This document shows positions 14,501 through 36,200 of a DNA stretch of 64,000 nucleotides, one piece after another (positions within the stretch are counted from its first letter, which is position 1; every line of letters begins with the position of its first letter). Under the pieces are notes generated by a model that saw only the letters and a list, made by a program, of their open reading frames with translations, had not been told where the DNA came from and made no database searches. The DNA comes from Flavobacteriales bacterium (GTDB lineage: Bacteria > Bacteroidota > Bacteroidia > Palsa-965). A program made the translations under genes and the position numbers. Location: the NCBI GenBank assembly GCA_040377305.1, contig JBEIPA010000004.1, forward strand, positions 96,001-160,000, given 5' to 3'.

Positions 14501-15628
14501 CCATGTGGATCTCATCTCACGGGACTGTATTGGGCTCCGATTCTTACCAAATACAATACTGCTACAACTGCACATGAGAATGCACGACACCTATTAGACT
14601 CGCTTGTTGATGGAGGCAGTACAGAGGATGCTCTCGATTTGATCAAAGATAAATCCGGGAGTGATCTTTATGATGAACTAGAGAAACTTTCACCGTGGCT
14701 GTCTGACATTGTCCTGCTGGATCTATTGGAGGAGCATAACAGAAGCAAACTTAATGAGGAGCAACTAGTCGCAATTCTTCTGCTGAATGGACGATTGTCT
14801 CAAGTGGTTTACGATGCTGCCATAAATACATCGCCGGAACTTGCCGGTGCATCAATCGATGCACTTACTGCAAATCAAGAAAATATCGGTGCACGTGAAT
14901 TGAAAGAAAGAGAATGGCACACTATGTTGTTTGAAGCAGACAAGGAGGCGACTGTAATAGTCGAATATGCATTGAGCTCGGACTCAATTGTAGAAGGCGC
15001 CAATGCATTAAGACACGCTGAACCAATTCCGGAAATGCAAAAATTATTTACGTTGCAGTTGGCTGCGTGCCGATTTGATGCCGCACGAGGAACCTTAGAT
15101 TCAATCTTTATAAAACAGGGAAATGTAGAAACATTCTGGACTGTGTTGGCGAGTATATCAATAGTTCAGGCTGAAGAGAATCGGAGTTGGAGCAGTGCGA
15201 CTATTGAAGAAATTCAAGTAGCAGATAGTATTTGGGGTGAATACGGTGAAGAATTTATTGGCGCAAGAGTCGCTGTATCACGATACACCAAGCAAGGATT
15301 TCTGCGATCTCCGTTTGACCTGGAGTCCAGTTCGGAGCGTCGGGCTAACCCAGATTCAGACGCGCCTTTACTTACGCAAAGCACAACTATGAATGTGTTC
15401 CCCAACCCGGCAACGCATTCAGCGACGATAACAATTAATGGAGCTTCGAATCTGACAGGTTATCTGGAAGTCGTTAATTCCGTTGGACAGACGGTAAATC
15501 GCATATCATTAGCGCAGGGCAGCCAGATTACGATCAATCTGGACGAATATCCGTCAGGCATTTTGTACCTTAGACTAGTCAGCGAAGGGGAGTGTTTAGA
15601 TACCGAAAAGTTGATAATAATGCGATGA
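11537..15628 (+). CDS. Large T9SS-secreted protein with probable beta-helix region
   Basis: Signal peptide; WNGIEVWG and parallel-beta-helix-like repeats; CTD VFPNPA...GILYLRL...KLIIMR. Confidence 0.85.
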   Translation: MKSIRNIFFVTPVLFCLSTKAQNVYDTYNPIVDSIVTTYGEDSNYYAFTGEYQIFSNLLESWEAASSLGYSISYKIEPVSFPFTPDCSNGDCGNSSSSTRDLVLIGSYVYGDYNFHRALDTMSSYSTLLSNKFTNTAPPGGMRDFIPHTVLKHTLFLHFGASVNSPVVDSFVFLLDHTRGFMSEYPFRNDNDESDPAEHDVTIFPWFIYTHNDSFLTVPNQGTNFMNTVDYFPFPDAHYFPDSLIPAWLMVPQPNTPNIYLAPEYFLHPSPYSLVGVLVANYAWDPFAGLQSQVVMGHAPHTYYIDTAMDLTTINPRERIIYNPSAVYITAADPIVFPSGYTFMTVGGKYPTKIQVEAIDSDTMYADLREVPVIGAALNLTDNPNTTAVDSMSYYYVTAGCTLRIEPCVTIYDATIVVQTGGRIELDTNGVGGNYILLVDSGGVLVQQNSNPSVPCSYMCFESSHYNQRHVTISSNTTWDTTNVESAFPGSAMWSAATNNTVKFVEGITIDSGITLTIGAGVNLLFGPNGKVIVKKGGRLIVNGTATDSCLFGPACQLEWNGIEVWGDSAITQFVGTGYTLQGYLDMDYCVVEHARTAVTLGKPGTLENNGGVIKAYHCSFLNNVHDVVFQPYRNFVNTGPYYPTAYNISLLSASEFRTTEYFFDASLNLDVDDGPSSASSHIVPDGVKVRHIASCTFANDTPNNYAPHLRGTGISGFESGLLLQSQNPNRFEGLSDGVWMKGVGTSAYAMNLSAQTFKNNIHAIVCEGTRFSAILADTIDVPESPQYGYDSLDLELGYDKPVGVFMIGSIDYRIEDNQFNVGDTTTQITPMASCKDCSYNIVIYNTAWPTPANTGNGTIYNNNIHHASIGIQAQGNNGVGGFGNDGAEFICNDFEESEFFDFLLIGRGWMPSAPAVQSTIRDQGNCDPNAPHLKATNYYDGCDFPSDSQAHYFYATSSSFVYNDLSVTSPACHNIGLVYCNPLENPNPCGSHLTGLYWAPILTKYNTATTAHENARHLLDSLVDGGSTEDALDLIKDKSGSDLYDELEKLSPWLSDIVLLDLLEEHNRSKLNEEQLVAILLLNGRLSQVVYDAAINTSPELAGASIDALTANQENIGARELKEREWHTMLFEADKEATVIVEYALSSDSIVEGANALRHAEPIPEMQKLFTLQLAACRFDAARGTLDSIFIKQGNVETFWTVLASISIVQAEENRSWSSATIEEIQVADSIWGEYGEEFIGARVAVSRYTKQGFLRSPFDLESSSERRANPDSDAPLLTQSTTMNVFPNPATHSATITINGASNLTGYLEVVNSVGQTVNRISLAQGSQITINLDEYPSGILYLRLVSEGECLDTEKLIIMR

Positions 15629-17049
15629 GGAAATTTGCACTTGTTATTGTTGTAAATCTGTTGTGCGAAATAGCTCCTGCACAACAGATTTATTTTAATA
15701 ATTTCTATGATGTCGCTGGTTTTCCTAATTACACGAGTAGTGTTATTCAAAAACCCGATAGCGGATTTATTTTTATAAACACAGATATTGGACCAATTCA
15801 GAAAGGGTATGTTATTACGGGCACTGACAAGTTTGGCGATACTATTTTTACTAAGCCCTACTATTACACGAACCTTGTCGTTACTACCGGATCAACGCAT
15901 TCTTTAATCCCAACACAGGATGGGAACTATTTGGTTTCGGGAACAGGGATCGATACAGCCAATGTGCGTGACGGTTGGTTAATAAAATTTACTCCGGCGG
16001 GTGACACACTTTGGACAAGTCGGTATGGGGGAGCAGCAGGGGATTATATTAATTCGATTTATGAGGATTCACAAGGAGACATTTGGGGATGTGGTTCTAC
16101 TTCGAGTTGGGGGAATGGGTTAAGCGATTTTTGGTTAATGCGCTTCGATTCCAATGGAATTCTACTTTGGGACACAACTTTTGGCACACCTCAAAACGAA
16201 GGATGTGTAAGCGGAGAACTGACTGCTGACGGTGGAATAATTATGGCGGGCAGAACTGACGGAATTCCGTATGTCGTTAAGGTTAATGCCAGCGGACAGG
16301 TTGATTGGCAGTATGCTTATTCTAATTATAATGGTTACGGCTATGTTTCGGCCGCACCTGATTCTGGATATATTATTGCTTGTGGTAAAATTATCTCTGC
16401 AAATGAAGAGCAAGGTGTCATATTAAAACTGAACTCCAATGGTGTTGAATTGTGGAATAGATATGTTGGCTTCGCAAACACGGGTGAAGGATTGTCTGCT
16501 AAACCAATAGTAACCGCGAATAGTATAGTAGTAAGTGGAGTTAGCGCTCCAGTTAGTGGGTACTATAGAGGATTCTTAGCTAAAACAGACATTTTCGGAT
16601 TCATGCTCTGGCAAAGAGCTTACACTCTAGACAGCACTCACAATCACTATGTGTATGAATGTTTGGCGACTTCTGATAGTGGTTATTTACTAGCCGGTTC
16701 AACTTTTCAGACCACTCAAAATGCCTGGCTAGTGAAAGTAGATAGTATGGGATGTGAAGTTGCTGGGTGCGATGCCGTGAATATCAACGAACAACAGGCG
16801 GAACAAGCGATTCGTGTCTATCCAAATCCCGCAAGGGAATATGTTTCAGTTGCATTTTTGGGAGACCACATCGGCGCTACGCGTCTAGAGATTTTCAATT
16901 CAGAAGGAAAACTAGTTGATTGTGCTTTCTTCGATGGGCTCCGTTTGCTTACTATTTCAACTACGGAATATGCTGAGGGAATCTATTTTTTACGGGTGAT
17001 GCGAGAAGGAGAATGCATTGATTCGCAAAAACTGGTCGTAATTAGGTGA
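15625..17049 (+). CDS. T9SS-secreted beta-propeller-like protein (paralog 1)
   Basis: Repeats of type WLIKF..GDTLWT; CTD VYPNPA; ATGA overlap with the upstream stop. Confidence 0.85.
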   Translation: MRKFALVIVVNLLCEIAPAQQIYFNNFYDVAGFPNYTSSVIQKPDSGFIFINTDIGPIQKGYVITGTDKFGDTIFTKPYYYTNLVVTTGSTHSLIPTQDGNYLVSGTGIDTANVRDGWLIKFTPAGDTLWTSRYGGAAGDYINSIYEDSQGDIWGCGSTSSWGNGLSDFWLMRFDSNGILLWDTTFGTPQNEGCVSGELTADGGIIMAGRTDGIPYVVKVNASGQVDWQYAYSNYNGYGYVSAAPDSGYIIACGKIISANEEQGVILKLNSNGVELWNRYVGFANTGEGLSAKPIVTANSIVVSGVSAPVSGYYRGFLAKTDIFGFMLWQRAYTLDSTHNHYVYECLATSDSGYLLAGSTFQTTQNAWLVKVDSMGCEVAGCDAVNINEQQAEQAIRVYPNPAREYVSVAFLGDHIGATRLEIFNSEGKLVDCAFFDGLRLLTISTTEYAEGIYFLRVMREGECIDSQKLVVIR

Positions 17050-18473
17050 GAATTTTTATCGCATTTCTTTTTTCCAACCTGTTATTCGAGTTTTTACCCG
17101 CTCAACAGACCTATTTTAATAACTACTATGAAGTATCCGGCTATACAAACTATACTTCTAGTGTAATTCAGAAATCGGACAGCGGATATATTTTCATTAA
17201 TACCGATGTGGGGCCTGTATACAAAAGCTTCGGTTTTGTTAATGTGAATAAATTCGGCGACACACTGTACTCTAAAAATTACTACTACCAGTATTTGCTC
17301 TTTTCTAGCGGCGTAACTCATTCTCTAATTCAAACCCAAGATGGAAATTATCTCGTCTCTGGCAGTGTGATGGATACCTCAAATACCAGACAAGGATGGT
17401 TAGCGAAGTTTGATCCCAATGGAGATACTTTATGGACAAGGTATTATGGCGGAGTTGCCAATGATTACATAAATTCCCTTTATGAAGACGCGCAGGGAGA
17501 TGTGTGGGGATGTGGATCAACATCGAGCTGGGGAAATGGACTCAGTGATTTTTGGTTAGTTCATTTTGATGCAAATGGCCTCGCAATATGGGATACGACT
17601 TTTGGTACCAACCAAAGTGAAGGCTGTGTTAGTGGTGAACTCACTGATGATGGTGGAATAATTATGGCTGGTAGGACTAACGGAAGTCCGTATGTCGTGA
17701 AAGTTGACGCTGCAGGCAACTCAGAATGGCAATTCGCATACCCAAATTATAGTGGATATGGTTACATTTCGACTGCTGCTGATTCAGGTTACATTGTCGG
17801 TTGTGGCGAAGTAATTTCTGCCGCTGAAGCTCAAGCAGCAATATTAAAATTGAATTCCGATGGAACACTTGATTGGGTTAAACATGTTGGATTTGTTGGT
17901 GTTGAAGATATCATCACTACAAAACCTGTTGTTTCAGATAGTAACATTGTAGTGTCAGGTGTAAGTACTACGGCAACATCAGGTTATTATACAGGCTTTT
18001 TGGCTAAAACAGATATTCAAGGATATATGCTTTGGCAGAGAACGTACACGTTAGACAGTATGCACAGCCACCACGTTTACGAATGCTTAGCTACATCCGA
18101 TGGCGGTTATTTACTTGGCGGCTCCACTTTTCAGTCGACTCAAAATGCCTGGCTAGTGAAAGTAGATAGCTTGGGATGCGAAGTTGCCGGATGTGATGCT
18201 GTCGGAATTTCAGAATTGAACGAATCAAATAATGTCTCAGTCTATCCTAATCCCGCTAACAACTTAATCACGATCGAAATAGGGGTTCCCGATTTTACAA
18301 ATTCAACTTTTGAACTTTTTTCGTCAACTGGTCAATTGGTAAAAAGTGAGCTCATCGTGAATGACTTAGTTGTCCAGATTAATGTCGCTGATCTCGAACC
18401 TGGTTTATATTTCTACAGGCTAAGTGATCAGACGGACAAATCCTATCAAGGCTGTGTTCTAATCACCCACTAG
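17046..18473 (+). CDS. T9SS-secreted beta-propeller-like protein (paralog 2)
   Basis: Colinear with paralog 1 (WGCGSTSSWGNGLSDFWL is identical); GTGA overlap; different CTD. Confidence 0.85.
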   Translation: MRIFIAFLFSNLLFEFLPAQQTYFNNYYEVSGYTNYTSSVIQKSDSGYIFINTDVGPVYKSFGFVNVNKFGDTLYSKNYYYQYLLFSSGVTHSLIQTQDGNYLVSGSVMDTSNTRQGWLAKFDPNGDTLWTRYYGGVANDYINSLYEDAQGDVWGCGSTSSWGNGLSDFWLVHFDANGLAIWDTTFGTNQSEGCVSGELTDDGGIIMAGRTNGSPYVVKVDAAGNSEWQFAYPNYSGYGYISTAADSGYIVGCGEVISAAEAQAAILKLNSDGTLDWVKHVGFVGVEDIITTKPVVSDSNIVVSGVSTTATSGYYTGFLAKTDIQGYMLWQRTYTLDSMHSHHVYECLATSDGGYLLGGSTFQSTQNAWLVKVDSLGCEVAGCDAVGISELNESNNVSVYPNPANNLITIEIGVPDFTNSTFELFSSTGQLVKSELIVNDLVVQINVADLEPGLYFYRLSDQTDKSYQGCVLITH

Positions 18474-18514: not shown

Positions 18515-20410
18515 ATGCGGAAGTATTTCCTGTTTCTGTTCACCCTGCTTTCCCTGAATGCAAGCTCGCAATCAGCTGCCGATTATATCAAACAATCGGA
18601 TGCAATCTATTCTGCAAATCCGGACTCTTCGCTGGTGTTGTGCGAAAAGGCATTGGAAATAGCGAACGCTAAGGGTGATTCTGCAAACATCGCTTACGCA
18701 AAAGCGAAATGTTCCCGCTATCACATTCTGAAGTCGGATTTTGAGAATGCAACTGCCTGCCTGAATGCCGCTATTGAAATTCAGCAGCGTCACGACTACA
18801 AAAGCGGACTCGCCTACTCGTATAAGCTTAAAGCAATCATGCAGAAGCGAATCGGCAATACGGCTGATGCGCTTCGCCTCCAACAAGAGGCTGTTGAGCT
18901 TTACAGAGAAGATGGCGACATCTACGGCATGTGCTCTGTACTGATCAATCTTACCCTCGATTACATTGAAGGAAAACAATTTGATCTCGCTGAAGCGGCA
19001 CTGGATACAATCGCGGCGCACCCGGAAGGTCTTTTAGAATCGGCTTCGTATTTCTATTGGCAGAATCGGGGTTCATTACAGGCCGCACGCGAAGATTTCT
19101 CCGGCGCCTTGGTTTTTTATGACTCGGCAAAAGTGATTGCGCTGAAGTACGATCTGGTGGATAGCTATGTGACGTTGCTATCACTCATTGGAACTGCACA
19201 CATAAAACTCGGCAAACTCGACGCTGCTGAAATCGCATTGCTGGAAAGCTGCGAACTGGCGCGCGAAAACAATCTCGATCACGAATTGAATGAATCGCTT
19301 ACAGTGCTCGCACAACTCTACGTTTCCAGGGGCGATTTCAAAAATGCGTACCTCGCCAACAAAGAACAAACCGATCTCGCCACGAAAATTTACAACATCG
19401 ATCGTATCAACAAGATCAATGAGCTGGAGAAAAAGCTGGAACTCGCCGAGAAAGAAAAAACCATCGCAGAACAGAACATCACAATCGCTGAAGAAGAAGC
19501 GCAGAAGAAAGAACTCGAACAACGGAATTTTCTCCTGGGCATTGTTGTCGGCGCTGTAGCGCTTATAGCCGGACTGCTCACTTTCCTGTTCGTTCGCACA
19601 CGCATGCTCAATACGAGAATCGCGAAACAGAATGTGCTCATCGAAGACGCGTACTCCAAAATCCGCGACAGCATAACGTATAGTCGCAAGATTCAAACCG
19701 CTATGTTGCCGACGAATGAAACGATCTCCTCTTACCTTCCGAAGTCCTTTGTGTTGTACGAACCACGTGATATTGTAAGCGGAGATTTCTACTGGTTCGA
19801 CAAGCGCGCAGAAGAAATTCTCTTTGCGGCTGCCGATTGTACGGGACATGGCGTTCCCGGTGCTTTCCTCAGCATTGTTGGATATAATCACATTCACCAG
19901 GCCGTGAATATTTACAACATCACTTCACCGGAGAAAATTCTCGATCGGGTGCGTGAAGATGTTTCTGAAACACTGAAACAGTACGACGACAATGCTGCAA
20001 ACGATGGAATGGACGTTTCGATTTGCGCGGTGAATCGCTCAACGAATGTTTTGAAATTCGCCGGAGCTAATCATGCTGCATGGATTCTTCGCGGTGAAAC
20101 AATTCACGAACTGAGGGGCGATAATCAGCCCATCGGTGCGTACCCCGGACAAGAAATTCTCCCGTACAAGCTGCAGGAATTTCAGCTGGAGAAAAAAGAT
20201 CGCATCTATTTGTTCAGCGATGGTTATACGGATCAGTTCGGCGGAGAGAAGGGCGGAAAGTTCAAGAGCAAACAGCTCAAAGAGATTTTGATTGCATCAC
20301 GCACCGAATCTCTTCCGCAGCAGAAAGAATCTCTCCTCCAAACACTTCGTAAGTGGCAAGGATCGTATGAACAGATTGATGATGTGCTGGTGATCGGAAT
20401 CGAAATCTGA
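18515..20410 (+). CDS. Membrane sensor with extracytoplasmic TPR region, TM helix and SpoIIE/PP2C Ser/Thr phosphatase
   Basis: Signal peptide; TPR helices; TM FLLGIVVGAVALIAGLL; motifs VSGDFY, ADCTGHGVPGA, FSDG, IDDVL. Confidence 0.92.
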   Translation: MRKYFLFLFTLLSLNASSQSAADYIKQSDAIYSANPDSSLVLCEKALEIANAKGDSANIAYAKAKCSRYHILKSDFENATACLNAAIEIQQRHDYKSGLAYSYKLKAIMQKRIGNTADALRLQQEAVELYREDGDIYGMCSVLINLTLDYIEGKQFDLAEAALDTIAAHPEGLLESASYFYWQNRGSLQAAREDFSGALVFYDSAKVIALKYDLVDSYVTLLSLIGTAHIKLGKLDAAEIALLESCELARENNLDHELNESLTVLAQLYVSRGDFKNAYLANKEQTDLATKIYNIDRINKINELEKKLELAEKEKTIAEQNITIAEEEAQKKELEQRNFLLGIVVGAVALIAGLLTFLFVRTRMLNTRIAKQNVLIEDAYSKIRDSITYSRKIQTAMLPTNETISSYLPKSFVLYEPRDIVSGDFYWFDKRAEEILFAAADCTGHGVPGAFLSIVGYNHIHQAVNIYNITSPEKILDRVREDVSETLKQYDDNAANDGMDVSICAVNRSTNVLKFAGANHAAWILRGETIHELRGDNQPIGAYPGQEILPYKLQEFQLEKKDRIYLFSDGYTDQFGGEKGGKFKSKQLKEILIASRTESLPQQKESLLQTLRKWQGSYEQIDDVLVIGIEI

Positions 20411-21346
20411 TTACCGCATTTTCGCGAAAACAAAATTCCCGCCTTCATCGCCCATCACACGCAAGTGACCGTAACGCGGAACTTGTCCGCAGGCTTCATA
20501 CACTTGTGGCAATACATGCCCGGCCATCATGTCCATTGTGAATGCCGCGTTCGCTCCGGAAAGAAATTCATTCACGTAATATGCAAACGGACTGTGCTCT
20601 CCGTCTCCATCTGTTACAGTCGACAATCGTCCGGAAACAAATGCCTCACGCGATGGCGTTTGATTAAGAATGTCCAGATAACTCATTTGCTGATCGGGTG
20701 TGAACCCGCGGATATGAACTCCGGATGAATCGTGATCTTCCTGGATTGCATTCGAAGAGGCGCGTGCTGCACTGTCGCTGAGGTAAACCGCGCGACGATC
20801 ATCGAATATGCTGGAGCTGTAACAGGCGTCAATGAACATCACAACATGCAATGCAGAATTTGTTGCAAGTCCGTGCGACCGAAGTTGCTCACAGGAAATA
20901 AACGAAGACGTTTTTGATCCTCCATCACTCGGAATCCAAAAACCCATATCTGTTTTTTCGCTGTAGTAACCGTGACCTGCGAAGTAAATGATCAGATTGT
21001 CTTTCTCCTTCATCGAGCGCGCAAGGAAAAGCAAAGTATCCAGAATATTTTTGCGCGTTGCTATGGAGTCCGACAAGATGATGCTGTTCTTTCTCCCGAA
21101 ATGATATTCGGTCTGCAGCTCAGTGCAAATGGAAATCATATCACCATTCGCGTTTTTCAGATCCTTCCACACAGCGTTTGAATCGTAATTGGAAATACCG
21201 ATTCCGAACAACCAGTTTCTTCCCGGTGATTCGCTGATCCAGCTACCGTCATTCAACTTCGCATTCTCGCGCGCATCACACATGTTCGTGTACGCGTAGA
21301 CAAACAAGATGAGGATAGCGGCTAATGCAAGACGTGATATTCGCAT
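20411..21346 (-). CDS. Exported or anchored peptidase C14 (caspase/metacaspase-like)
   Basis: IGISNY, dyad YFAGHG and IDACYS, HSPF; hydrophobic N-terminus; start reassigned to MRISRL. Confidence 0.88.
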   Translation of the reverse strand: MRISRLALAAILILFVYAYTNMCDARENAKLNDGSWISESPGRNWLFGIGISNYDSNAVWKDLKNANGDMISICTELQTEYHFGRKNSIILSDSIATRKNILDTLLFLARSMKEKDNLIIYFAGHGYYSEKTDMGFWIPSDGGSKTSSFISCEQLRSHGLATNSALHVVMFIDACYSSSIFDDRRAVYLSDSAARASSNAIQEDHDSSGVHIRGFTPDQQMSYLDILNQTPSREAFVSGRLSTVTDGDGEHSPFAYYVNEFLSGANAAFTMDMMAGHVLPQVYEACGQVPRYGHLRVMGDEGGNFVFAKMR

Positions 21347-21474: not shown

Positions 21475-23754
21475 CTACTTTCTCTCTTTCGGATCGGCGC
21501 TCAGCACCTGCAGCTTTCTCACGCACCACATTTCACTCGTGACCGCTGGAGGATCTTCTGTAAAGCTTCTTGTCTTCGAACCATAGTTGCGCATCATGTT
21601 TGTAAGCGGACTCGAACTAGTCTTCGCAGGTCCACGCTCTAACACACCATCTGACCGGAAAATATCTGCCGGCAGTGGCGTTTCCGATGCAACCATGAAG
21701 TAGGTATCATATCCGTAAGGTTTTGAAACATTGAATCCGAGCTTTTCTCCTCCCGGAGTTTTCTCCAATGGAATCATGCGCTGACTCTGCCACTTGCCGC
21801 GATATTCTATTTTGTTTCCGTCGCCCAATTCCGGACGAGGATATAAGAGCGCCATCTTTCCGTTTGCGTCTACACCAAATACGTTGATGTAACGTGAACA
21901 ATAGAACGGCTTGAAGTTTACGGTGTCAAGCACGAGTACAAGTTCGAGACGATCGCCGCCGTAAACTGTTTCGCCGGGAGCAACAACACCACCATCCTTG
22001 CGCTTCAATCCGAGATAATATGGAAACTCATCTGGCGGAGATGCAAGATTCATCCACGCATTTAATTTTCCGAGACGGATTGCATAGTTGGCTACGGAGT
22101 CTGCGCCTTTCGCTGCCTGGTCGCCACCAATCCACGAAGAACGTAAAGGCAATCCTAGATTCGATGCGGTATCTGTCTTCGAAAGGTTCGGACGGATAAG
22201 CGCGTACTCTAATCTCCCATTGCTTCTTCCTGCGATGATATAATTTGCCGACATAGGATCGCTTGTGAAATCAATTGCAGAGTTGTCGGTGCCTGCACCA
22301 ATCTTCGTATGAAGTGCAGCATCAAATTCTTTTGTTGGTGGTAGTTGAAGTGAAACAGTTGCGCCCTTACGGATATTTTTCTTCAGCTCTTTGTCTGTGA
22401 GTGAAGCAAGCGTGGTGATCTTGTCTTTGCCCGCTTGTGAAATCATCCAGTGATTGATGTGATACTGAATCACGTATTCAGGAACCGCTTCGGTCTGATC
22501 TTTTACCTGAACACAATGTCCGGATGCGAATAGCGCCTGCACCGGTGCGATTGCTGCGAGCAGTTCCGTTGCAGACATGGTTGCTGCCGGTGCCCACAAT
22601 AAAAGTGTTGGACGATCGGGAGTAACCCAGTTGAGCATTTCTACAATGTCTCCGGGTTGAAACGACTTAACGTCACCGCTCACCACATTTGCAATGCTTG
22701 TTCCGATACCGGCAACTGAAATTACTTCGAGCGTATCTTTTCCGTCTGGTCGCGCGAAACGACATCCCGGATAAATAGAAAGCTCGAATCCTCCGCGAAG
22801 GCGAACGTGTCCATCAACAATTTCCTGAACGCCAACTACAGTTTTCGTTTTTGCGTCGGAAACAGGTTGACCAAACAGTGTTGCGTTCTTTCTCGTGTCA
22901 TTCGCTCCCAGCACCGGATCCTGAAACTTTGGTCCTCCATCCGATTTCAGATTCGCAACAATACGAGTGAAAATCATTTGTGCGCTCTCATTTGAAGTTG
23001 AGCTGTTGATTGCGCGTATGAATGCTAACGTAAATGCACCGTGTGAAATTCCATCAGCGTCTACAGCTTCTTTCGCTGTCTGATCACGTTGCGCAGCGCT
23101 GAACACCAGTGCACCACGCTCTTCAATGTTTGGAGATTTGCTGTCGTCGTTCGCGTCGAAGTTCAGTGGTGGCGCCTGGCGAGCGATGTATTGAACGGGC
23201 AAACTGTTCCCGCGCGCAATTCCTCCGCTGTGACAACAATCGTAGATCAATGTAAGTGTCACTCCTTTATCGAGAAACTGATTGAACAGCGGCGCGAGTT
23301 CTTTGTTGCGAATGTCCCACAAATCAGAAGGCACCATGGTTTGATCCTGTCCGGTGCCATCGTACGAGCGACTGTTTTTCACTTGAGATCCGTGTCCTGC
23401 GTAATAAATTAAAACAACATCACCAGCTGCCGGCTGGCATTTGCTGATCATGTTGTTGATTGCATTCAGAATGGACTCATGTGTTGCCTGACGGTTCATG
23501 AGTGTATCTATATTCTCATTCATGAAACCATACCGCGCCATGATGAGTTGCTTCACCGAACGCGCATCGTTTACACAGCCCGATAGATTTTGCCATCCCG
23601 CACGCTCTGCAGTGCCTCGTTGTGCGAACGCAGCCGGAGTTTGTTTGGTTTCTTCGTACGTGTCTATGCCGATAATGAGCGCACGTTTAACTCCGGCGTT
23701 AAGTGTTGTGACCGCGAGTAAGAGAATCAGGGAACTGACGAGATACTTTTTCAT
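21475..23754 (-). CDS. Exported peptidase C14 with C-terminal DUF4384-like domain
   Basis: Signal peptide; RALIIGIDTY, GCVNDA, YYAGHG, YDCCHSG, HGAFT; C-terminal GDRLEL...YINVF..D.NG..LLYP. Confidence 0.9.
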   Translation of the reverse strand: MKKYLVSSLILLLAVTTLNAGVKRALIIGIDTYEETKQTPAAFAQRGTAERAGWQNLSGCVNDARSVKQLIMARYGFMNENIDTLMNRQATHESILNAINNMISKCQPAAGDVVLIYYAGHGSQVKNSRSYDGTGQDQTMVPSDLWDIRNKELAPLFNQFLDKGVTLTLIYDCCHSGGIARGNSLPVQYIARQAPPLNFDANDDSKSPNIEERGALVFSAAQRDQTAKEAVDADGISHGAFTLAFIRAINSSTSNESAQMIFTRIVANLKSDGGPKFQDPVLGANDTRKNATLFGQPVSDAKTKTVVGVQEIVDGHVRLRGGFELSIYPGCRFARPDGKDTLEVISVAGIGTSIANVVSGDVKSFQPGDIVEMLNWVTPDRPTLLLWAPAATMSATELLAAIAPVQALFASGHCVQVKDQTEAVPEYVIQYHINHWMISQAGKDKITTLASLTDKELKKNIRKGATVSLQLPPTKEFDAALHTKIGAGTDNSAIDFTSDPMSANYIIAGRSNGRLEYALIRPNLSKTDTASNLGLPLRSSWIGGDQAAKGADSVANYAIRLGKLNAWMNLASPPDEFPYYLGLKRKDGGVVAPGETVYGGDRLELVLVLDTVNFKPFYCSRYINVFGVDANGKMALLYPRPELGDGNKIEYRGKWQSQRMIPLEKTPGGEKLGFNVSKPYGYDTYFMVASETPLPADIFRSDGVLERGPAKTSSSPLTNMMRNYGSKTRSFTEDPPAVTSEMWCVRKLQVLSADPKERK

Positions 23755-23854: not shown

Positions 23855-23890
23855 GAAGATTCGAATACTCTTTCGAATATTCGAATCTTC
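23855..23890 (-). terminator. 13-bp perfect stem after the small exported protein gene
   Basis: GAAGATTCGAATA...TATTCGAATCTTC followed by TGTTTT on the minus strand. Confidence 0.65.
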
Positions 23891-23931: not shown

Positions 23932-24351
23932 TTACTCGCGGAGGTTAACCCACCAATCAGAGTAGCAGTCTCCGCTGTTCTCCCAGTAGAAAGATCCACC
24001 TGAAGTTTCAGCATACCAGCTTGTCCAGCCACCGTATACCCATACTTCGCCAGTTCCCCAAGGCTCAACATAGCCTTTGAAGTTACCGTCAACGTAGATC
24101 TTAACCCAGTATCCAGTGTAGTTGTCAAAAGTAAGGTGACACTCACTTGCAGATCCGCGCTCAGCTGGCTTAGGTGCCGCAACGTCTGTAGTAGGAACAT
24201 CAGTCTTAACTTTGTCCTTACCGCGTGCAGCTCCGCCGGCCATTTTAGTTGCTTTAACGTCTTTTACAACGTGTTCCTTCTTTCCAGATTGCGCATTTGC
24301 AACTCCGAAAGACAGTACTGCGATAAGCAGCATAAAAAGATGTTTTCTCAT
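23932..24351 (-). CDS. Small exported protein: signal peptide, low-complexity pro-region with two RG motifs, Trp/Tyr-rich beta domain
   Basis: Signal ending ANA-Q; AARG at R43 and AERG at R65; 74-aa C-terminal domain with 2 Cys; own TATATTTG promoter box at 24386-24393. Confidence 0.85.
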   Translation of the reverse strand: MRKHLFMLLIAVLSFGVANAQSGKKEHVVKDVKATKMAGGAARGKDKVKTDVPTTDVAAPKPAERGSASECHLTFDNYTGYWVKIYVDGNFKGYVEPWGTGEVWVYGGWTSWYAETSGGSFYWENSGDCYSDWWVNLRE

Positions 24352-24440
24352 AGTAGTTAGTTGGTTTGGTTATGATGTTACAACGCAAATATATATGTTT
24401 AGATTCGTCAGTCGGTATGCCAATTGTCATTTTCACACCT

Positions 24441-24634: not shown

Positions 24635-26422
24635 ATGTTTCTCTCTTTCAGAAATATTATTCTTCTGCTTGCCGGATTATTCCTGCAGGGAAGTGTGGTG
24701 GCTCAAGGGGAGGGCGATTCGAAAGTGTTCTTTCTTGGAATCGGAATTGAAAAGTGCCTGAACGGCACACCAGGGAAGTCAAATGCAGTTGCCGATGTGC
24801 AGCTCGTTCTGAATCGCACCAAAAAAGACGCACAAAGCGGAGATGTAAACTTCAATCACGACGGCTCTTCGTTGATGGTAAGCAAGGCGGTTTGCTATAC
24901 CTTGTTTAACGATCAGGCTACGCTCCGAAATATCGATTCATTGGTCAATGTAATCAAGCTCACTGCCCGACCACAAGATGTTTTCTATTTGTATATCAGT
25001 GCGCAAACCACGGGACTTAATGGCAGTTTCACGATCCCGGCCGATCCCGCAAGTGCGAAAAAAGGTAAGACAGTTGCGCCTCAGCGAATTGTTCTCGAGT
25101 CTTCTCACCTCAAAGAATTATGCGAATCGGTACAATGTGAAAGTCAGATTCTCGTAGCCGATGCTGTTACCTGGCAGGAAAATCACGACGTGCTGCTAAC
25201 TGCACTTCTGGCTCCTGCTGCCAAAGGAAAAAATCAGATTATTGTGGCTCCATTTACTGAATCAACAGATTCATTTCTTGTTGCAGGGAAATACGTGAGC
25301 GCCTTCGCCGGATCAATCTACAATGCGGGACAATCGCTCCTGCGACTACTCGTTAAGAACGGAACCGTTACGGAGAAAGTAAAAACTTCAATGAACAATG
25401 CATACAATGCATTGACGGGGAGCGATGACATGATCGCGGCGGTTTATGAGTCCTGGAAATTAGTGGAAGGATCTGTTGGGCCGTCGATTGCGAAAGTGAC
25501 GCCTGCCGATCAAACCAAAGTTGCAGCACAGCCAGCACCGACCACTCCAAATCTTGGTCGTGGCTTCGAAGAAGATCAGCCTGCTCCGGTTGGACAACAG
25601 TATTCGTTGAAGGACACAAAACATTTTGCGCTCATTGTTGCAAACTGGCAGTATAATGATCCAGATTGGCAGGACCTGAATAATCCGATTAACGATGCGC
25701 TTGCCTTAAAAGCTGAACTTGAAACGTACTACGGATTTGAAGTGAAACTCTGTACAAACCTCACGAAAGAGGGAATGGAAACAGAGATTATCAGCTTACA
25801 CAAACGCAATCTTGGTCCTAACAGCCAGGTACTATTTTACTTCGCCGGACATGGTGGGTACCAGCAGCTTGGTGCAAACGCAGGTACCGGTTACCTCGTG
25901 CCTGTTGATGGAAAATCACAGCGCCTCGACTCAACCATGAGCAGCTATTACAGTTATGATGTTCTGAAAGCGAGACTGCTCTCACTTCCTTCACAACACG
26001 TGCTGGCAATGATCGATGCTTGTTATTCCGGCTCGGCAGATCCTAGTGTGTTTAACAAGAAAGACGGAGCTGCGGGAAATGAACTGGCGCAAGCGGGTAC
26101 AGAACTCAAACGCGGAACCGTAACAGCGCAGATGAATGAATGCATGCTGAAGCGGTCGCGGTATTTTATTTGCTCGGGCAAGCTGGAAGAAGTGAAAGAT
26201 GGTGTGAAGGGTGGTTTGTCCCCCTTCGCTAAAGTGATCACAGATCGTCTTGCGCTTATGAGAAAACGTGATCTCAACGATCAGGAAATAGTATTCGGCG
26301 CTGAACTTGAGATTGCACTCTCTAAAACGAAAGAGATTAATTCCTACGCTTTCTCATTTGGAAATAGCAATGAATCGACATCCAGCTTCATGTTTGTTCC
26401 TCCTGCGCATCGCATCAAATAG
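24635..26422 (+). CDS. Exported tandem C14 protein: degenerate N-terminal caspase-like domain plus intact C-terminal domain
   Basis: N-domain has FLGIGIEK, NAVADV, YISAQT, VADAV (no His/Cys); C-domain has NPINDA, YFAGHG, IDACYSG, LSPF. Confidence 0.88.
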   Translation: MFLSFRNIILLLAGLFLQGSVVAQGEGDSKVFFLGIGIEKCLNGTPGKSNAVADVQLVLNRTKKDAQSGDVNFNHDGSSLMVSKAVCYTLFNDQATLRNIDSLVNVIKLTARPQDVFYLYISAQTTGLNGSFTIPADPASAKKGKTVAPQRIVLESSHLKELCESVQCESQILVADAVTWQENHDVLLTALLAPAAKGKNQIIVAPFTESTDSFLVAGKYVSAFAGSIYNAGQSLLRLLVKNGTVTEKVKTSMNNAYNALTGSDDMIAAVYESWKLVEGSVGPSIAKVTPADQTKVAAQPAPTTPNLGRGFEEDQPAPVGQQYSLKDTKHFALIVANWQYNDPDWQDLNNPINDALALKAELETYYGFEVKLCTNLTKEGMETEIISLHKRNLGPNSQVLFYFAGHGGYQQLGANAGTGYLVPVDGKSQRLDSTMSSYYSYDVLKARLLSLPSQHVLAMIDACYSGSADPSVFNKKDGAAGNELAQAGTELKRGTVTAQMNECMLKRSRYFICSGKLEEVKDGVKGGLSPFAKVITDRLALMRKRDLNDQEIVFGAELEIALSKTKEINSYAFSFGNSNESTSSFMFVPPAHRIK

Positions 26423-26904: not shown

Positions 26905-27726
26905 ATGAGAAAACTCTACTTCTTCATTCTTGCATTCTTCCTCTCGGTATCTGTTTCTTCACAAACTTTCTGCGATCCGCAAGGAAACGTAGTGCTGTTT
27001 TCGAATTACGATGGCGGCCCGCTTGTCATTAATTGTGATGTGAATATTCCCAACCTGAAAATCGGTGTGGTGAGCTATGAATTTTCCCGCATAGAAATTA
27101 TCGGACCGTACGCTTCTAACGTCACGCAACTCTGGTGGGCTGGCTACAATGGAAGTAATGACCACTGCAACCTCGGCGCGCCGTTGTACACCACAATTTC
27201 AGGTGTAGCAAATCCGGTCGACTCTATCCTCATTTATCCTGCAGCAACTTATTCCAATCCGAATGGTTACGGTTCTATCATTTGCAACTACTCTTGCACG
27301 ACCACCACCAACCAGGGCGGCTGTAACACCGCTGATCAGATTGCGCATTATTTCATTACCAATTTTGCGGGCTCGTTGCGTTCACACAGTACAGGCTACG
27401 GATGCTGGCCTGACACGATGGATATTTCCTATGGCGGAAATTGTTGTGCGAATCCATTGACTACGATTGCAGAAACAAACACCGCGCTGTTTTCCATCGC
27501 ACCGAACCCTGCAAGCAACGAAGTGAACATCACCATGCCTTCTTCTCCGGATGTGCGCACAATTCAGATCACTAATATGCTTGGAGAAACAGTAAGCGAA
27601 ATTCAGATTGCCGCAGGAACAACTTCCCAACAAATTCCACTCGAAACTTTTGCCCCGGGAACGTACTTCTTCCGCCTGCAAAACGGAGCACAGATAACCA
27701 CGGAAAAACTTGTTATCATTGATTAG
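26905..27726 (+). CDS. Small Cys-rich T9SS-secreted protein
   Basis: Signal peptide; CTD IAPNPA...GTYFFRL...KLVII. Confidence 0.85.
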   Translation: MRKLYFFILAFFLSVSVSSQTFCDPQGNVVLFSNYDGGPLVINCDVNIPNLKIGVVSYEFSRIEIIGPYASNVTQLWWAGYNGSNDHCNLGAPLYTTISGVANPVDSILIYPAATYSNPNGYGSIICNYSCTTTTNQGGCNTADQIAHYFITNFAGSLRSHSTGYGCWPDTMDISYGGNCCANPLTTIAETNTALFSIAPNPASNEVNITMPSSPDVRTIQITNMLGETVSEIQIAAGTTSQQIPLETFAPGTYFFRLQNGAQITTEKLVIID

Positions 27727-29902: not shown

Positions 29903-30223
29903 AAGTATAAGAGCGTAATTGTTTGCTAGCTAAACTAAGGTTTCGCCCACCGCTCAACTGAGGCGACTTGTTGAAGTAATAAACAGGCAGATGTTACAAC
30001 GTGTCCAAATTCGCGTTTCCCGCATTCGACGGGCAAATTGCCATATTCGTCTAAACTCGTTGATTTTTAGGGTAATAAGTGCTAAACTGCACCATAGTTT
30101 GCGGCGGATTTCATGGTTTTGAGCGGATATTGTCAGACAATAATCTGATTTTGATATGCGTGTGAAAAATCATTGAGTTCCTCCCCTATACTATACACAC
30201 GCACACCAACTAAATTTTCCTTC

Positions 30224-33200
30224 ATGAAAAGTTGTACCCCGAAGCTACTGTTCGCAATTGCATCGCTTGCAATTTCATCTACTACCATCAGCGCACAGAA
30301 TTGGAGAGATCCACTCGCCGATCCTAATCAAAGTTTCTATGACGTTCAGGCGAACTTCTACGCAGAATGGGGCGCACGGGAACAGCAAGAGTATCAGGCA
30401 CGACAGGATCAGACCCTGATGAATGATAAATGGCCCGGCAATGACCCCGTGAATCCAACGCCTGCACCTTATATGAAAGGTGGATACAAGCAATTTAAGC
30501 GCTGGGAGAATTACATGGAGCCTCGAGTTTATCCTTCAGGGAATTTAACTCTGCCTTCTTCAAATTATGAGCGCTTCGTTCAGTACCTCGATCAGAATCC
30601 GGTGGCGATGTCCCAATACCAACAGGTGTACGGAAATCCTATCGGTAGCAATCAGTCTCCGGCATTCGGTGGACCGGTTCAAAATCCGATGTCAAGCACC
30701 TGGACATTTATGGGGCCAACCGGATATCCGACCAATGGTGGAGCGGGACGTATAAACGTAGTACGATTTGATCCGCAGTTTGCAACAAACAATACCATGT
30801 ATGCGGGCGCTCCTGCTGGTGGATTGTGGAAGTCAACCAATGGTGGAACAACATGGTCGATCGTTGCCAGTACAGACGCGATTGCATCCATTGGTGTAAC
30901 AGATATTGCGATTGATCCTGCAAACAGCAACATTCTATACATTGCTACAGGTGACGGTGATGCTGGTGATACTTACAGCGTGGGGGTATTGAAATCTATC
31001 GACGGAGGTTTAACATGGAACACAACCGGGCTTAACTGGACAACTAACCAGGGACGCACAATTAGTCGTCTACTCATTCATCCTACAAACGGACAGATTC
31101 TCATTGCATTTACAAGCAATGGAATTTACCGCACGACTAATGGCGGCACATCGTGGACACAAGTTCAGAATACAAACTCGTTCCGCGACGGAGAATTCAA
31201 ACCGGGTGATCCGAATACCGTTTACGGCGCCGGAACTCGTTTCTGGAAATCAACAGACGGTGGCGTTACATGGACTAACACAGCTACCGGTCTTCCTGCA
31301 AACACAGCGGTAGATCGATTCTCCATTGCAGTAACACCTGCAAACGTGAACTACGTCTATATTCTCGCCGGAAGCGCAGCTAACAATGGCTACTACGGTG
31401 TTTATCGTGCAACCGATTCAGGTAACACATTCACGCAGCGTTCCAGTACACCCAATATTATGGGCTGGTCGAATACAGGAGCTGACACCGGTGGACAAAG
31501 CTGGTACGATCACGGATTTGATGTATCACAAACAAATGCCGACGTAGTGGTGGTTGGTGGTGTTAATCACTGGCGATCCACCAATGGTGGTACCAACTGG
31601 ACACTTAATGCACACTGGACAGGAAGCGGTGCTCCATACGTTCACGCTGATGTGCACTGTATAATTTTTGCGCCCGGATCCGGAACACGTTACTTCTCCG
31701 GCAACGATGGTGGTATCAATGAAACAACGAATAGCGGTGGAGCATGGTCTGATCGCAGCGCGCAGTTATGTATTGCACAACCATACCGTATCGGACTTTC
31801 TGCAACAACAGCAAACTTGTGGCTCACGGGTCACCAGGACAATGGTACAAACCGCTACAACGGTGCATGGGCAGAAGTAATGGGTGGTGACGGAATGGAT
31901 TGCTTCATTGACCGCACGAACAACAACAACATGTATGCGGAATATTATAACGGCGCATTCAACCGATCAACAAACGGTGGCGGTACGTGGGCAGGTTACA
32001 CAACCGGATTAACCGGAGCTGCAAACTGGGTAACACCATGGATACAGGATCCGACGAATGCGGTTTACCTCTGGGCTGGATACACGCAGGTGTTCCGCCG
32101 CAATACAACCACAGGTAACTGGGTTCAGATGGGCACGCTCACCGGAAGCGGAACAATCATAGACATTGATGTTGCACCTTCGAACGGGGCCGTTGTTTAT
32201 GCCGCTCGTTCTAACCAGTTGTGGAGATCTGCAAACACCGGCGGAACGTGGACGAACATCACCGGCACTCTGCCAATTGCCAGCGCAGCTATTTCACGTG
32301 TAACCGTTGACCCTTCTGATGCTAATAATGTTTGGGTGACGTTCTCCGGTTATTCATCAGGCAACAAAGTTTTCGTTACCACCAACGGTGGAACAAGCTG
32401 GACCAACATTTCTGCCGGCTTACCAAATATTCCCGCGAACTGTATTGTGTATACTCCCGGGTCTACCAACGATGCAGTTTACGTGGGTATGGACATTGGC
32501 GTTTATTATCGCGATAACACAACTGGTGCCTGGGCGCCTTACTTCACGGGCTTACCAAACGTTCCGATTTTCGATCTCGAAATCTTCGCACCGACTAGCA
32601 AAATCCGTTGTGCGTCTTATGGTCGCGGAGTTTGGGAAGTAGATGTGTACAATCCGGGGACGCTCGCACCGGTTGCTGACTTCTCCGCTAATCAAACATT
32701 AATTTGTCCCGGTTCAACTGTGAACTTCACGGATCTTTCGTCGTTCACACCTACATCGTGGGCATGGACATTTCAAGGAGGAACACCAGGAACTTCTACT
32801 GCACAAAATCCTACAGGAATTACGTGGTCGACTCCAGGCACATACAGCGTAACACTTACGGCGACAAACACCAACGGATCCGATGCGGAAACCAAAACAG
32901 CTTACATCACTGTCTTAAACAATGCTGTTGCTCCTCCGCTGGTAGAAGGTTTTGAGGGCGCTCAATTCGTTCCGGCCAACTGGATAGCCAATGACATCAA
33001 TAACGATGGCGTGTACTTCGATCGTTTTGCAGCAGGTGCTAATCCAACACCTGGTAATAGTGCGCGATTCGACAACTACAACCTTGATGTCGCCGGTTCG
33101 CGGGATGAAATGTGGGCGCCACGACAAACATTCGCATCAATGACCAACTGCCAGATTACTTTCGACGTGGCGTACGCGCGATACAGTGCAGCATACTCAG

Positions 33201-36200
33201 ATACACTTGAATGTTTGGTGTCAACAAATTGCGGATCGACCTGGACACAAGTGTGGATTAAGGGCGGAAGCACGCTCGCCACCGTTCCTGATCAAACAAC
33301 GCAGTTCGCTCCGACAACCGCGCAATGGCGTAATGAAGTAGTTAGTCTCACAGCTTACAACGGACAAGCGAACGTTCTCATCAAGTTTGTTAACCGCGGT
33401 CATTACGGAAATTGTTTATACGTCGATAACGTGAACATTACCGGAACAGCATCTGCGCTACCAAGCGGAACATTTACTGCAAGCGCTACTTCTGTCTGTG
33501 CGGGGGTTCCTGTGAATTTTACAAGTACTTCTACTGCTACTCCAACTTCGTGGTCGTGGACATTCCCAAGCGGAACACCCGCAACTGCAACAACACAAAA
33601 CGTTACCGGTGTCGTTTGGAATACTGCAGGAACTTACACAGTAACGCATACTGCAACGAACGCAAACGGCACAGGAACGACAACGCAAACAATAACTGTC
33701 CTTCCGTTGCCAACCGTAACGACATCGGCATCTCCTGCAACAATTTGTTCCGGATCAAGTTCAACACTCACGGCGACAGGCGCATCAACTTATTCGTGGA
33801 TGCCGGGACCATTGAGCGGCTCACCGGTTACAGTGTCGCCAACAGGAACTACAACTTACACCGTAACAGCTACCGCTGCGAATGGTTGCACAAGAACTGC
33901 AACAAGAACAGTTACAGTAAACACCTCTCCAACTGTTACAGCGAGTGCAAGCAGTTCTACCATTTGTGCGGGAAGTAACACAACGTTAACCGGAGGCGGA
34001 GCATCTACATACGTGTGGAATCCGGGAAATATTTCCGGAAGTCCGATTACGGTTTCTCCAACGGGAACAACCACATACACCGTAACAGGCACAGCAGCGA
34101 ACGGCTGTACGTCGACAGCAACTCGAGTGATCACAGTGAATCCAGCTCCAACAGTTACAGCAACTGCGGGCAGTCCGACTATTTGCACGGGCGGAAACAC
34201 AACGCTTACTGGTGGTGGAGCGTCAACATACAATTGGCTGCCTGGTCCACTTTCAGGTTCACCAGTTACTGTTTCACCTGCAATAACTACTACGTATACC
34301 GTGACAGGAACTGCTGCGAACGGTTGTACATCTACGCAAACTGTATTGGTTACTGTGAATCCAACTCCAACTGTTGTGGTATCTGCAACACCTTCTACAA
34401 TTTGTTCGGGCGCTTCATCAACAATGACTGCTACCGGTGCCACAACTTATTTGTGGATGCCTGGATCATTGACAGGAACATCTGTTGTAGTTTCTCCAAC
34501 CACAACAACAACGTACACGGTTACCGGAACTTCGGGGTGTTCGTCAACAGCTACACAACTCATTACTGTTAACTCTTCACCTACGGTAACTGCTACATCG
34601 AGCCCGGGAACAATTTGCTCAGGTAACAACTCAACGCTCACTGCAGGTGGTGCTACAACCTATTCATGGTTGCCAGGACCATTGAGTGGTTCGCCAGTGA
34701 CTGTTGCACCTGCAACTTCTACGACGTATACCATGACAGGCACAGGAGCGAACGGATGTACATCGACTCAAACCGTTGCTGTTACAGTGAATACATCACC
34801 AACGGTTGCTGTTTCTGCTTCGAATGCATCGATTTGCACAGGAGGAAACACAACACTTACTTCTACAGGAGCTGCAAGTTATTTGTGGATGCCCGGATCA
34901 CTCACCGGTTCAAGTGTTGTAGTAACTCCGACTGCAACGACGACTTACACAGTGACAGGAACAGCCGCGAATGGTTGCACAAACGTTCAGACCATTACAA
35001 TTACCGTAGGTTCACAACCAACAGTCACTGTGTCTGCTTCTAACACTTCTGTTTGTGCGGGCTCAAGTACAACGTTGACTGGCGCGGGAACAACGTCTTA
35101 CACCTGGATGCCGGGCAACTTGACCGGAACATCAATAGTTGTATCTCCTACAGGAAATACGACTTACACCGTTACAGGTTCAAACGGTCCCGGATGCACT
35201 AACACTGCAACAATTCTGATCACTGTCAACGCAATTCCTAATGTGACTGCATCCGGTTCTCCGAATGTAATTTGCGCAGGAAGTTCAGCTACGCTCACGG
35301 GTAGTGGGGGTGTTACGTACACCTGGATGCCTGGCGCCCTTTCCGGTTCACCAATCACCGTGTCGCCAACAACTACAACTACTTATACCGTAACAGGAAC
35401 AGATGCTAATGGATGTACTGACACTGGAACACGATTAATTACTGTGAATGCTGCACCAACACTTACTGTTACTCCGGCTAACTCGTCGATTTGTCCTGGA
35501 GGCAGCGTAACATTATCCGGTACAACAACGGGCGGAAATACGTATAGCTGGTCGCCAATAACGGGATTGTCTGCACCTACATCTGCAACGACAATTGCAT
35601 CGCCGACAATTACTACAACTTATGTGCTTACGAAAACGCGCACAACAACAGGTTGCACGACTACACGAACAGCAGTTGTAACTGTGAATCCAACTCCGAC
35701 CATTACTGCAACGGCCGCGAGCCCTTCAGTTTGTACAGGAGGTAACACAACAATCACTGCAGCAGGCGGATCAACTTACACATGGATGCCAGGCTCACTT
35801 AGCGGAACAACAGTTACTGTTACACCGGTTGCAACCACAACTTACACAGTAACCGGAACTAGTGCACAAGGTTGTACCGGCACGCAAACCGTAACTGTTA
35901 CAGTAGGTCCACCTCCAACAGTAACCGCTTCTTCGAGTGGTACTATCTGCTCTGGCGACAACGCAACACTCACTGGTTCGGGAGCATCCTCATATACGTG
36001 GATGCCGGGATCGTTAAGCGGAAGTCCGATCAGTGTTTCACCAGCAGCAACAACGACGTATACGGTAACCGGTTCCAACGGTCCGGGATGTTCTAGTACT
36101 GCAACCGTGCTTGTAACGGTGAATACTTTACCAACTGTCACTGCATCTGCTTCGAATTCTACAATTTGTGCGGGTGACGCAATTACCCTTACCGGGAACG

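Follow-up and report, generated by a model that had tools for sequence, protein, structure and literature searches.

A small exported Arg-Gly precursor encoded beside a metacaspase-like protease in Bacteroidota: a candidate envelope effector that also occurs in jumbo phages

Why would a bacterium export a small protein with two Arg-Gly (RG) sites, and why is it encoded next to a caspase-family protease? The question is raised by a gene in a Flavobacteriales genome (GenBank assembly GCA_040377305.1), which we analyzed within a window of 64,000 nucleotides (contig JBEIPA010000004.1, positions 96,001 to 160,000). A first-pass annotation had read its product as an abundant pro-protein that is activated by cleavage. 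It was silent on a specific partner protease, on capture by phages, and on the rival idea that the small protein is an inhibitor or antitoxin. The features of the locus are collected in Table 1.

Table 1. Features of the precursor gene and its surroundings (positions within the window).
Feature	Position	Strand	Basis or detail
Membrane protein with TPR and SpoIIE (PP2C-type) parts, gene convergent with the caspase genes	18515-20410		No recurrence in other loci
Second protein with a caspase domain; 311 aa counted from ATG; both His and Cys motifs	20411..21346	-	PF00656
Class A protease, 759 aa, partner	21475..23754	-	PF00656, motifs, profile alignment
Terminator-like hairpin separating precursor and protease genes	23855..23890	-	Predicted fold, survey of the family
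Small hairpin directly 3' of the precursor stop codon	23899..23923	.	Hairpin analysis
Gene P0001, exported Arg-Gly precursor of 139 aa	23932..24351	-	ORF, homologs, codon bias
Acidic aromatic beta-sandwich, 74 aa, predicted Cys71-Cys129 disulfide	23935..24156	-	AlphaFold, covariation
Pro-segment 44-65, predicted across the domain face, C-terminal end Arg65	24157..24222	-	Covariation, AlphaFold
Pro-segment 21-43, predicted strand 26-33, C-terminal end Arg43	24223..24291	-	AlphaFold, covariation
Signal peptide 1-20, predicted cut ANA/Q	24292..24351	-	Sequence, conservation
TAnnTTTG box TATATTTG, Bacteroidota -7-type	24386..24393	-	3' end 34 nt before ATG
Sigma-54-like -24/-12 box TGGCATACCGACTGA	24408..24422	-	Predicted; 71 nt before ATG
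Third caspase-domain protein, 595 aa, divergent, His and Cys motifs	24635..26422	+	PF00656

The gene is confirmed as a real gene. The signal peptide proposed for its first 20 residues fits the conservation of the predicted junction, where Ala20 is kept in 84% and Gln21 in 88% of an alignment of 162 sequences (the Q-rule is treated in PMC5837995). Of the 45 positions from residue 21 to residue 65, 9 are Lys, 7 Ala and 3 Pro. Both RG sites that had been pointed out, R43-G44 and R65-G66, are present, and so is the Trp/Tyr-rich domain behind them (residues 66-139), with 8 Trp, 8 Tyr and two Cys (Cys71 and Cys129).

The suspected abundance of the product can be approached through its codons, and a calculation of the codon adaptation index (CAI) had been proposed for this purpose. 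The precursor has a CAI of 0.724, exceeding 97.4% of the 4043 called genes, relative to a reference of 23 translation and chaperone genes that were chosen by motif and position and average 0.733. The partner protease reaches 0.616 and exceeds 72.9% of genes. The codon preference noted by eye holds for GTT (10 of 14 Val), ACT (7 of 9 Thr), TAC (6 of 8 Tyr) and AAC (4 of 5 Asn); it does not hold for GGT, which encodes 4 of 16 Gly while GGA encodes 8.

The gene is followed by a strong hairpin. What had been described as a 13-bp terminator stem is a hairpin of 16 pairs (13 Watson-Crick, one G-U and two more; z = -7.55), and none of 200 shuffled sequences was equally stable. Across the family, 102 of 145 distinct members have a strong hairpin 3' of the gene, compared to 24 of 137 control genes; of the 41 members with a class A protease (the class of the partner) directly downstream, 28 have one. 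Hence, the small protein probably outnumbers the protease. Codon bias and terminator both fit the earlier claim of an abundant product.

Upstream, the gene does have the TAnnTTTG box that was attributed to it. Since a box of this type lies within 150 nt upstream of 782 of the genome's 4024 genes, it is weak evidence alone, and the family is mildly enriched in it (52 of 139 upstream regions versus 277 of 1064 for neighbours). A second, putative promoter element is a sigma-54-like box (the consensus is TGGCAC-N5-TTGC in PMC12316311), and the genome has an rpoN gene. A relaxed form of this box occurs in 29 of 139 family upstream regions, compared to 7 of 1064 for neighbours and 54 of 4015 genes of the same genome, but because the pattern was relaxed after some family sequences had been seen and many carriers are kin, we regard it as a lead only. 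Of the 29 boxes, 26 sit 43-79 nt ahead of the start; the strict box occurs in 4 of the 139 regions. Within the window the pattern matches 7 times with 4.3 matches expected, so that a single match is not significant by itself. The relaxed box is retained in 4 of 11 loci from phages (L178, L044, L179 and L058). The genome as a whole (G000, contigs C10, C27, C30, C35, C50, C52 and C53) has eight strict boxes, five of them 42-51 nt ahead of a start, and most precede exported-looking proteins.

The stretch between signal peptide and domain had been taken for a spacer. AlphaFold predicts it as ordered: mean pLDDT is 88.9 for the precursor, with block means of 82-94 across residues 21-70, and the model contains strand 26-33 in the pro-region and seven strands between residues 70 and 138. 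The last of these reaches residue 138 inside the fold, and a donor tail is absent. Mean-field covariation in 306 sequences, whose alignment overlaps that used by AlphaFold so that the two are not independent, ranks C71-C129 first. Eight of the top 25 pairs join the pro-region to the domain (V48-Y86, V52-K84, T55-T116, D51-K84, A34-F121, P60-W109, V32-W112 and V48-G89). The net charge of the domain is -7, with family medians of -3 for the domain and +3 for the pro-region, and the median aromatic fraction of the domain is 0.19. In these models, the "spacer" looks most like a lid covering the domain face that bears the conserved Tyr86 and Tyr113, a face assigned from strand alternation and not from coordinates. 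Domain release as originally written is not supported: with the pro-region modelled as docked on the domain, a cut may leave a nicked protein instead of a freed domain.

The predicted fold says little about function. Foldseek returned pVHL with an E-value of 1.5e-3; VHL scores a Z of 6.1 with an rmsd of 3.6 over 75 residues, tied with unrelated sandwiches, and the best Z of the fold search is 6.9. Sequence searches of the small protein against Pfam and the PDB gave no VHL family or chain. The pVHL beta domain and transthyretin-like sandwiches resemble the predicted fold, DUF6759 and PEGA are weak leads (Atlas feature scores 0.81-0.88), and the predicted disulfide and self-docked pro-region set the precursor family, which has no Pfam match, apart from them. 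When 150 members were scanned with Pfam at E <= 0.1, DUF6759, PEGA and beta-gamma crystallin were absent from the 25 families listed out of 35; the remaining 10 each matched one member only. A beta-gamma crystallin label was discarded, being a cluster name that Atlas assigns automatically and that no shared Pfam family backs, and beta-propeller matches were discarded as sums of sub-threshold repeats. The structural matches appear to reflect a common small beta-sandwich arrangement and give no function; the lack of a clear match does not show a new fold. None of the end functions suggested earlier (ligand, lectin, amyloid, antimicrobial) has gained direct support.

The family comprises 219 cluster representatives at E <= 0.001, mostly from Bacteroidota; among the 150 listed, P0025 (2207 aa, a low-complexity match) was excluded from all alignments. 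All 80 genome loci are labelled Bacteroidota, one distant member is labelled Acidobacteriota, and cultured carriers include, by their labels, Pedobacter, Flavobacterium, Lutibacter and Fibrella. Pfam, NCBIfam, PADLOC and PDB sequences gave no informative match for the small protein, nor did PHROGs for two phage copies. No fused or longer form turned up among 7988 candidates with lengths of 309-2000 aa, although this is a weak test. The literature searched does not describe the family or the module; supplements, notably those of PMC8195603 and PMC7159879, could list the neighbourhood.

The RG sites are a property of the family and not just of one protein. In 156 full-length homologs, a pro-region Arg is followed by Gly in 218 of 379 cases, compared to 41 of 331 for Arg in the domain and 123 of 1099 for Lys. 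Hence, the motif is selected and not compositional. At least one pro-region RG is found in 133 of the 156 homologs (in 99 no more than 12 residues from the domain), and 23 have no RG. The RG just ahead of the domain is missing in 76 of 300 sequences, 7 of which have an extra Cys there. Among 40 non-redundant precursor/protease pairs, all have an RG somewhere in the precursor, 37 have one adjacent to the domain and 31 have the upstream site. The genome's own second copy (G000 C15:4158-4571, locus L005) has lost the second site and shows ordinary codon bias, and no caspase gene lies within the 15 kb examined around it. In this copy and in the paralogs L007:10509-10976, L084:1309-1719 and L090:7999-8406, a Cys-rich stretch (CGGC, CSCGC) takes the place of the second RG; such paralogs are possibly decoys, or they may gain an extra disulfide. 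Tandem precursor copies occur in 10 of 160 loci.

The partner is a C14 protease of a composite kind, with a signal peptide, the C14 domain (His121, Cys174, Asp63 and Asp172), an Arg181-Gly182 site and a DUF4384 region. PF00656 matches with 95.6 bits (curated cut-off 21.4); PF14326, the DUF4384 model, gives 21.9 bits against a cut-off of 27, and 20-36 bits in neighbours of other loci. D63, H121, D172, C174, R181 and G182 are present in all 40 non-redundant class A members. D63 and D172 are predicted by alignment to Yca1 to be acidic pocket residues. Further RG sites are found at R707 (36 of 40 members) and R729 (30 of 40), and Arg181, Arg707 and Arg729 all lie in loops with pLDDT below 50. The nearest solved relatives are the metacaspases AtMC9 and AtMC4 (Foldseek E 1.4e-15). 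Profile matches to metacaspases have E-values of 1e-37 to 1e-28 and span about residues 21-286, p10 included; in a gapped profile alignment Arg181, which follows the catalytic Cys by 7 residues, falls where Yca1 has Asp. Metacaspases cut after Arg or Lys (PMC7475262; PMC12122906), and in calcium-dependent ones an Asp at the start of p10 is needed for calcium binding (PMC6426788).

In the window, three PF00656 proteins surround the precursor gene, and the gene of the third has the same position in several close relatives. For the locus, PADLOC returned only a generic caspase match. The T9SS sorting domain PF18962 is absent from both precursor and protease in a scan that found one in a neighbour. 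Large exported proteins with apparent C-terminal T9SS sorting domains are encoded elsewhere in the window (11537-18473, 26905-27726 and 30173-37075), with tandem paralogs at 15592-18473 and Pfam confirmation only for 26905-27726. The TPR-SpoIIE neighbour clustered with no ORF of any other locus, and signalling to this gene was rejected as an explanation for lack of recurrence.

How tightly are precursor and protease linked? The search used a caspase profile that started from nine seeds and was refined by iteration over the loci (Pfam confirmed 13 of 14 spot checks, and the remaining one has both motifs). A caspase is present in 121 of 160 loci, and in 94 of the 121 it is class A; in 52 of these 94 the class A gene lies directly downstream on the same strand. 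Of the 67 loci flanked by 5 kb or more on either side, 60 have a caspase gene no further than 5 kb away, compared to 240 of 19915 random positions in the genome of the window (1.2%). The distance is at most 600 nt in 51 of the 67, and class A alone gives 55 of 67. Because many loci are kin, raw locus counts overstate independence; clustering at 70% identity leaves linkage in 32 of 33 clusters, and clustering at 55% in 8 of 8. Three of the 7 well-flanked loci without a caspase are phage, and linkage is 59 of 63 when phage-like loci are left out. The first-pass annotation had named homologs that lack the RG motif before the domain and occur without caspases as evidence against its reading. What we find is in its favour: homologs keep RG and adjoin caspases.

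Presence and absence across genomes point the same way. Among 61 relatives, both genes occur in the same 7 genomes and neither in the other 54, some of which are incomplete; without the unpublished G422 the count is 6 of 60. The precursor is found in 6 of 26 congeners. Where a genome has no caspase near its precursor copy, class A is encoded elsewhere in 10 of 10 genomes tested (7 essentially whole, 3 as pieces at contig ends). In a phylum sample of 401 genomes, with 9 candidates scored per genome and five weak matches at model positions 1-84 uncounted, 11 genomes have a full-length class A protease and 8 of these have no member of the precursor family. The dependence is one-way: class A occurs without the precursor family. 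The mirror-tree correlation between the two proteins is low (Spearman 0.21), and kinship can produce it.

At other loci, unrelated Arg-Gly precursors fill the same slot. The fraction of Arg followed by Gly is 0.459 in the precursor family and 0.228 in class A, compared to 0.079 in other caspases, 0.050 in other neighbours and 0.055 in the genome; it is 0.545 in cluster c16, 0.228 in c6 and 0.162 in the trypsin-like, RG-bearing cluster c7, which occurs in 15 loci. The unnamed c16 proteins (11 of 160 loci) consist of a signal peptide, a pro-region, SRG and then about 22 Cys/Tyr-rich residues, and they adjoin class A; in L176 the c16 gene is immediately upstream of it. Members include L176:6366-6752, L177:6740-7147, L064:4457-4864 and L003:13015-13398. 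At L164:4505-5215, an exported protein of 236 aa with no Pfam match and two RG sites ahead of a Tyr-rich C-terminal part occupies the slot before genes for a trypsin, a class A caspase and a CHAT protein. Both this protein and c16 are unrelated to the precursor family (hhalign probabilities of 4.7 and 2.4). An astacin-family protease with TKTRG right before its domain (L169:5175-6362) is divergent from class A and a TPR-CHAT gene. Where a role can be guessed, these RG sites look like activation sites. TPR-CHAT, WD40-caspase, TPR-caspase and CHASE2 genes recur near the loci. A stand-alone exported CHASE2 gene is seen in 20 of 160 loci (e.g., L114:3314-5388 and L097:12760-14788), mostly paired with c6, an unnamed protein of 260-315 aa found in 16 loci with a conserved internal RG.

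The precursor has also entered phages. Five IMG/VR records carry the gene and none has a class A match. Three of them are nearly or fully complete (G467, 363 kb, 96%; G468, 339 kb with terminal repeats, 100%; G470, 388 kb, 93%) and the other two are fragments; G467 and G468 lack any PF00656 match, and G468 encodes a major head protein some 2 kb away from the precursor gene. The metagenome loci L044, L056, L057, L065 and L066 are phage-like judging by their neighbours. In one further phage contig, L058, terminase, head-closure and adaptor genes flank a precursor and class A pair (L058:5020-7463), whose protease is 89% identical to that of L045. In a quick tree, where L058 is not labelled as phage, the phage copies are nested in a Bacteroidales clade (SH-aLRT 99). 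Signal peptide, Cys pair and the two SRG sites are all retained in them. By rough counts, pN is 0.04-0.12 and pS 0.4-1.06 for phage precursor genes, and 0.05-0.08 and 0.78-0.86 for the L058 protease. Judging from these sequences, the phage copies are intact and under purifying selection, and their carriers are jumbo phages. INPHARED phages gave no match to the precursor, and viral contigs none to the L058 protease in a search reaching close relatives only; L180 was dropped as a chance match of 16 residues.

Taken from sequence, the reading we prefer, with belief and doubt in about equal measure, is that the precursor is an abundant effector, which an envelope defence cascade would switch on by cleavage, and a likely substrate of class A. 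The steps are given here from the most to the least certain. Precursor and protease would both be periplasmic, as their signal peptides and the T9SS scan suggest. Class A would very probably activate itself by a cut at Arg181 and read [S/T/A]R/G, and it would probably, with slightly less assurance, cut the precursor after both Arg43 and Arg65. The basic pro-segments could then depart and expose the Tyr86/Tyr113 face of the acidic domain. Neighbouring proteases with TPR, WD40 or CHAT domains would sense envelope damage or infection and trigger the cascade, and the freed domain would bind to, or clump on, an invader or a breach; the target is a guess. Phages would carry the precursor for their own use, probably against rival phages. 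The patchiness of the precursor (6 of 26 congeners), its tandem copies, the swappable cargos and capture by phages point to conflict.

One could also argue that the precursor restrains the protease. As a brake on class A, encoded upstream and made in excess, it would insert its anchored RG loops into the active site, where they would be cut slowly or stay bound, and phages would use it to silence a host defence protease. We consider this main rival rather unlikely, but some observations that count against the effector reading fit it. In the structural model, domain-anchored segments flank each site, and cleavage may do no more than nick the protein; the segments on either side of both RG loops covary with the domain. 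A precursor that is encoded upstream, has the higher CAI and is separated by a terminator from a protease directly downstream (52 of 94 class A loci) is the layout of an antitoxin too. Against the effector reading also count the 23 of 156 homologs without RG, the 76 of 300 sequences without it just ahead of the domain, the genome's own second copy and the genomes that have class A without the precursor family. The phage data fit both readings: G467, G468 and G470 carry the precursor and no class A match, which would suit a captured inhibitor, but L058 keeps the protease under purifying selection. Class A without the precursor family in 8 of 11 genomes speaks against an obligatory antitoxin, and the other RG proteins of the module (trypsin-like, astacin and c16) resemble zymogens or precursors.

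Cleavage could instead yield a ligand of a membrane receptor, like the plant Pep1 and GRI peptides, in the form of the domain or of the 22 residues that separate the two sites; the partner's nearest solved structures, AtMC9 and AtMC4, release elicitor peptides after Arg (PMC12122906), and a CHASE2 sensor protein is present in 20 of 160 loci. We think this improbable, since CHASE2 mostly adjoins c6, many loci consist of precursor and protease alone, the window's TPR-SpoIIE neighbour matched no ORF of other loci, and the strong codon bias exceeds the need of a ligand. A structural subunit with no role in defence is less probable still. Arg-specific processing matures type V pilins, and here the removal of strand 26-33 would open an edge along which the domain polymerizes into an envelope or matrix component. 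High predicted expression, the removable strand, the aromatic domain and the sigma-54-like box upstream of 29 of 139 members would suit such a subunit; a lipoprotein Cys at the cleavage site and a donor tail are absent, and patchiness (6 of 26 congeners) with phage capture is unusual for a housekeeping structure. That the precursor is an ordinary exported protein with incidental RG sites and neighbours is barely credible: no family, structure or paper found links it to a protease, but the RG enrichment, the linkage of 60 of 67 loci against 1.2%, and the exact co-presence in 61 relatives would all have to be coincidences.

If the effector reading is right, where does the pair stand among known systems? 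Gasdermin-caspase, CanABC and type IV Thoeris act in the cytoplasm. They resemble the pair in that a caspase-family protease is encoded with a partner that cleavage unlocks, and the type IV Thoeris caspase is Arg-specific (PMC13434031), whereas both genes here carry signal peptides and the cargo matches no gasdermin, nuclease or TIR domain. Plant AtMC4 and AtMC9, with PROPEP1 and GRIM REAPER, share a C14 protease with p20 and p10 that is the partner's closest solved match; as described in PMC12122906, they activate themselves at a basic residue in the linker, and by cleavage after Arg they set free an active C-terminal part. The partner differs in being bacterial, in its signal peptide and three extra domains, and in having Arg181 in place of the Asp of Yca1. 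The cargo differs from plant propeptides in its folded 74-aa domain with a docked pro-region, and no conserved receptor was found. Since the cargo matches neither group and both partners are exported, the pair belongs with neither. The orthocaspase MaOC1 is a bacterial C14 protease with Arg-directed self-processing (Arg219; PMC7475262), and DUF4384 is an accessory domain of cyanobacterial caspase proteins (PMC8283722); the parts of these two accounts available to us name no exported substrate or RG code. As for the inhibitor reading, staphostatins and the Bacteroides C10 protease inhibitors are small inhibitors encoded beside proteases. They too are small exported beta proteins beside an exported cysteine protease, but the searches gave no match to the precursor in sequence or fold, and the precursor has two conserved copies of the protease's predicted site.

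A wider picture is possible, if rather doubtful: a periplasmic cascade in Bacteroidota similar to clotting or complement. Sensor caspases, CHAT proteins and trypsin-like proteases would converge on one executioner metacaspase, which reads an Arg-Gly code on interchangeable precursors; the freed aromatic domains would seal or trap at a breach, and jumbo phages would capture the cargo or the pair. Caspase homologs are abundant in Bacteroidota, and the literature searched gives no natural substrates for them and no role outside the cytoplasm. The locus offers a candidate enzyme, a predicted site, a putative dedicated substrate and several alternative cargos in a unit of two genes. Given its capture by phages, the precursor would be new to the conflict between phages and their hosts in either case, as an effector of defence at the envelope or as an anti-defence protein.
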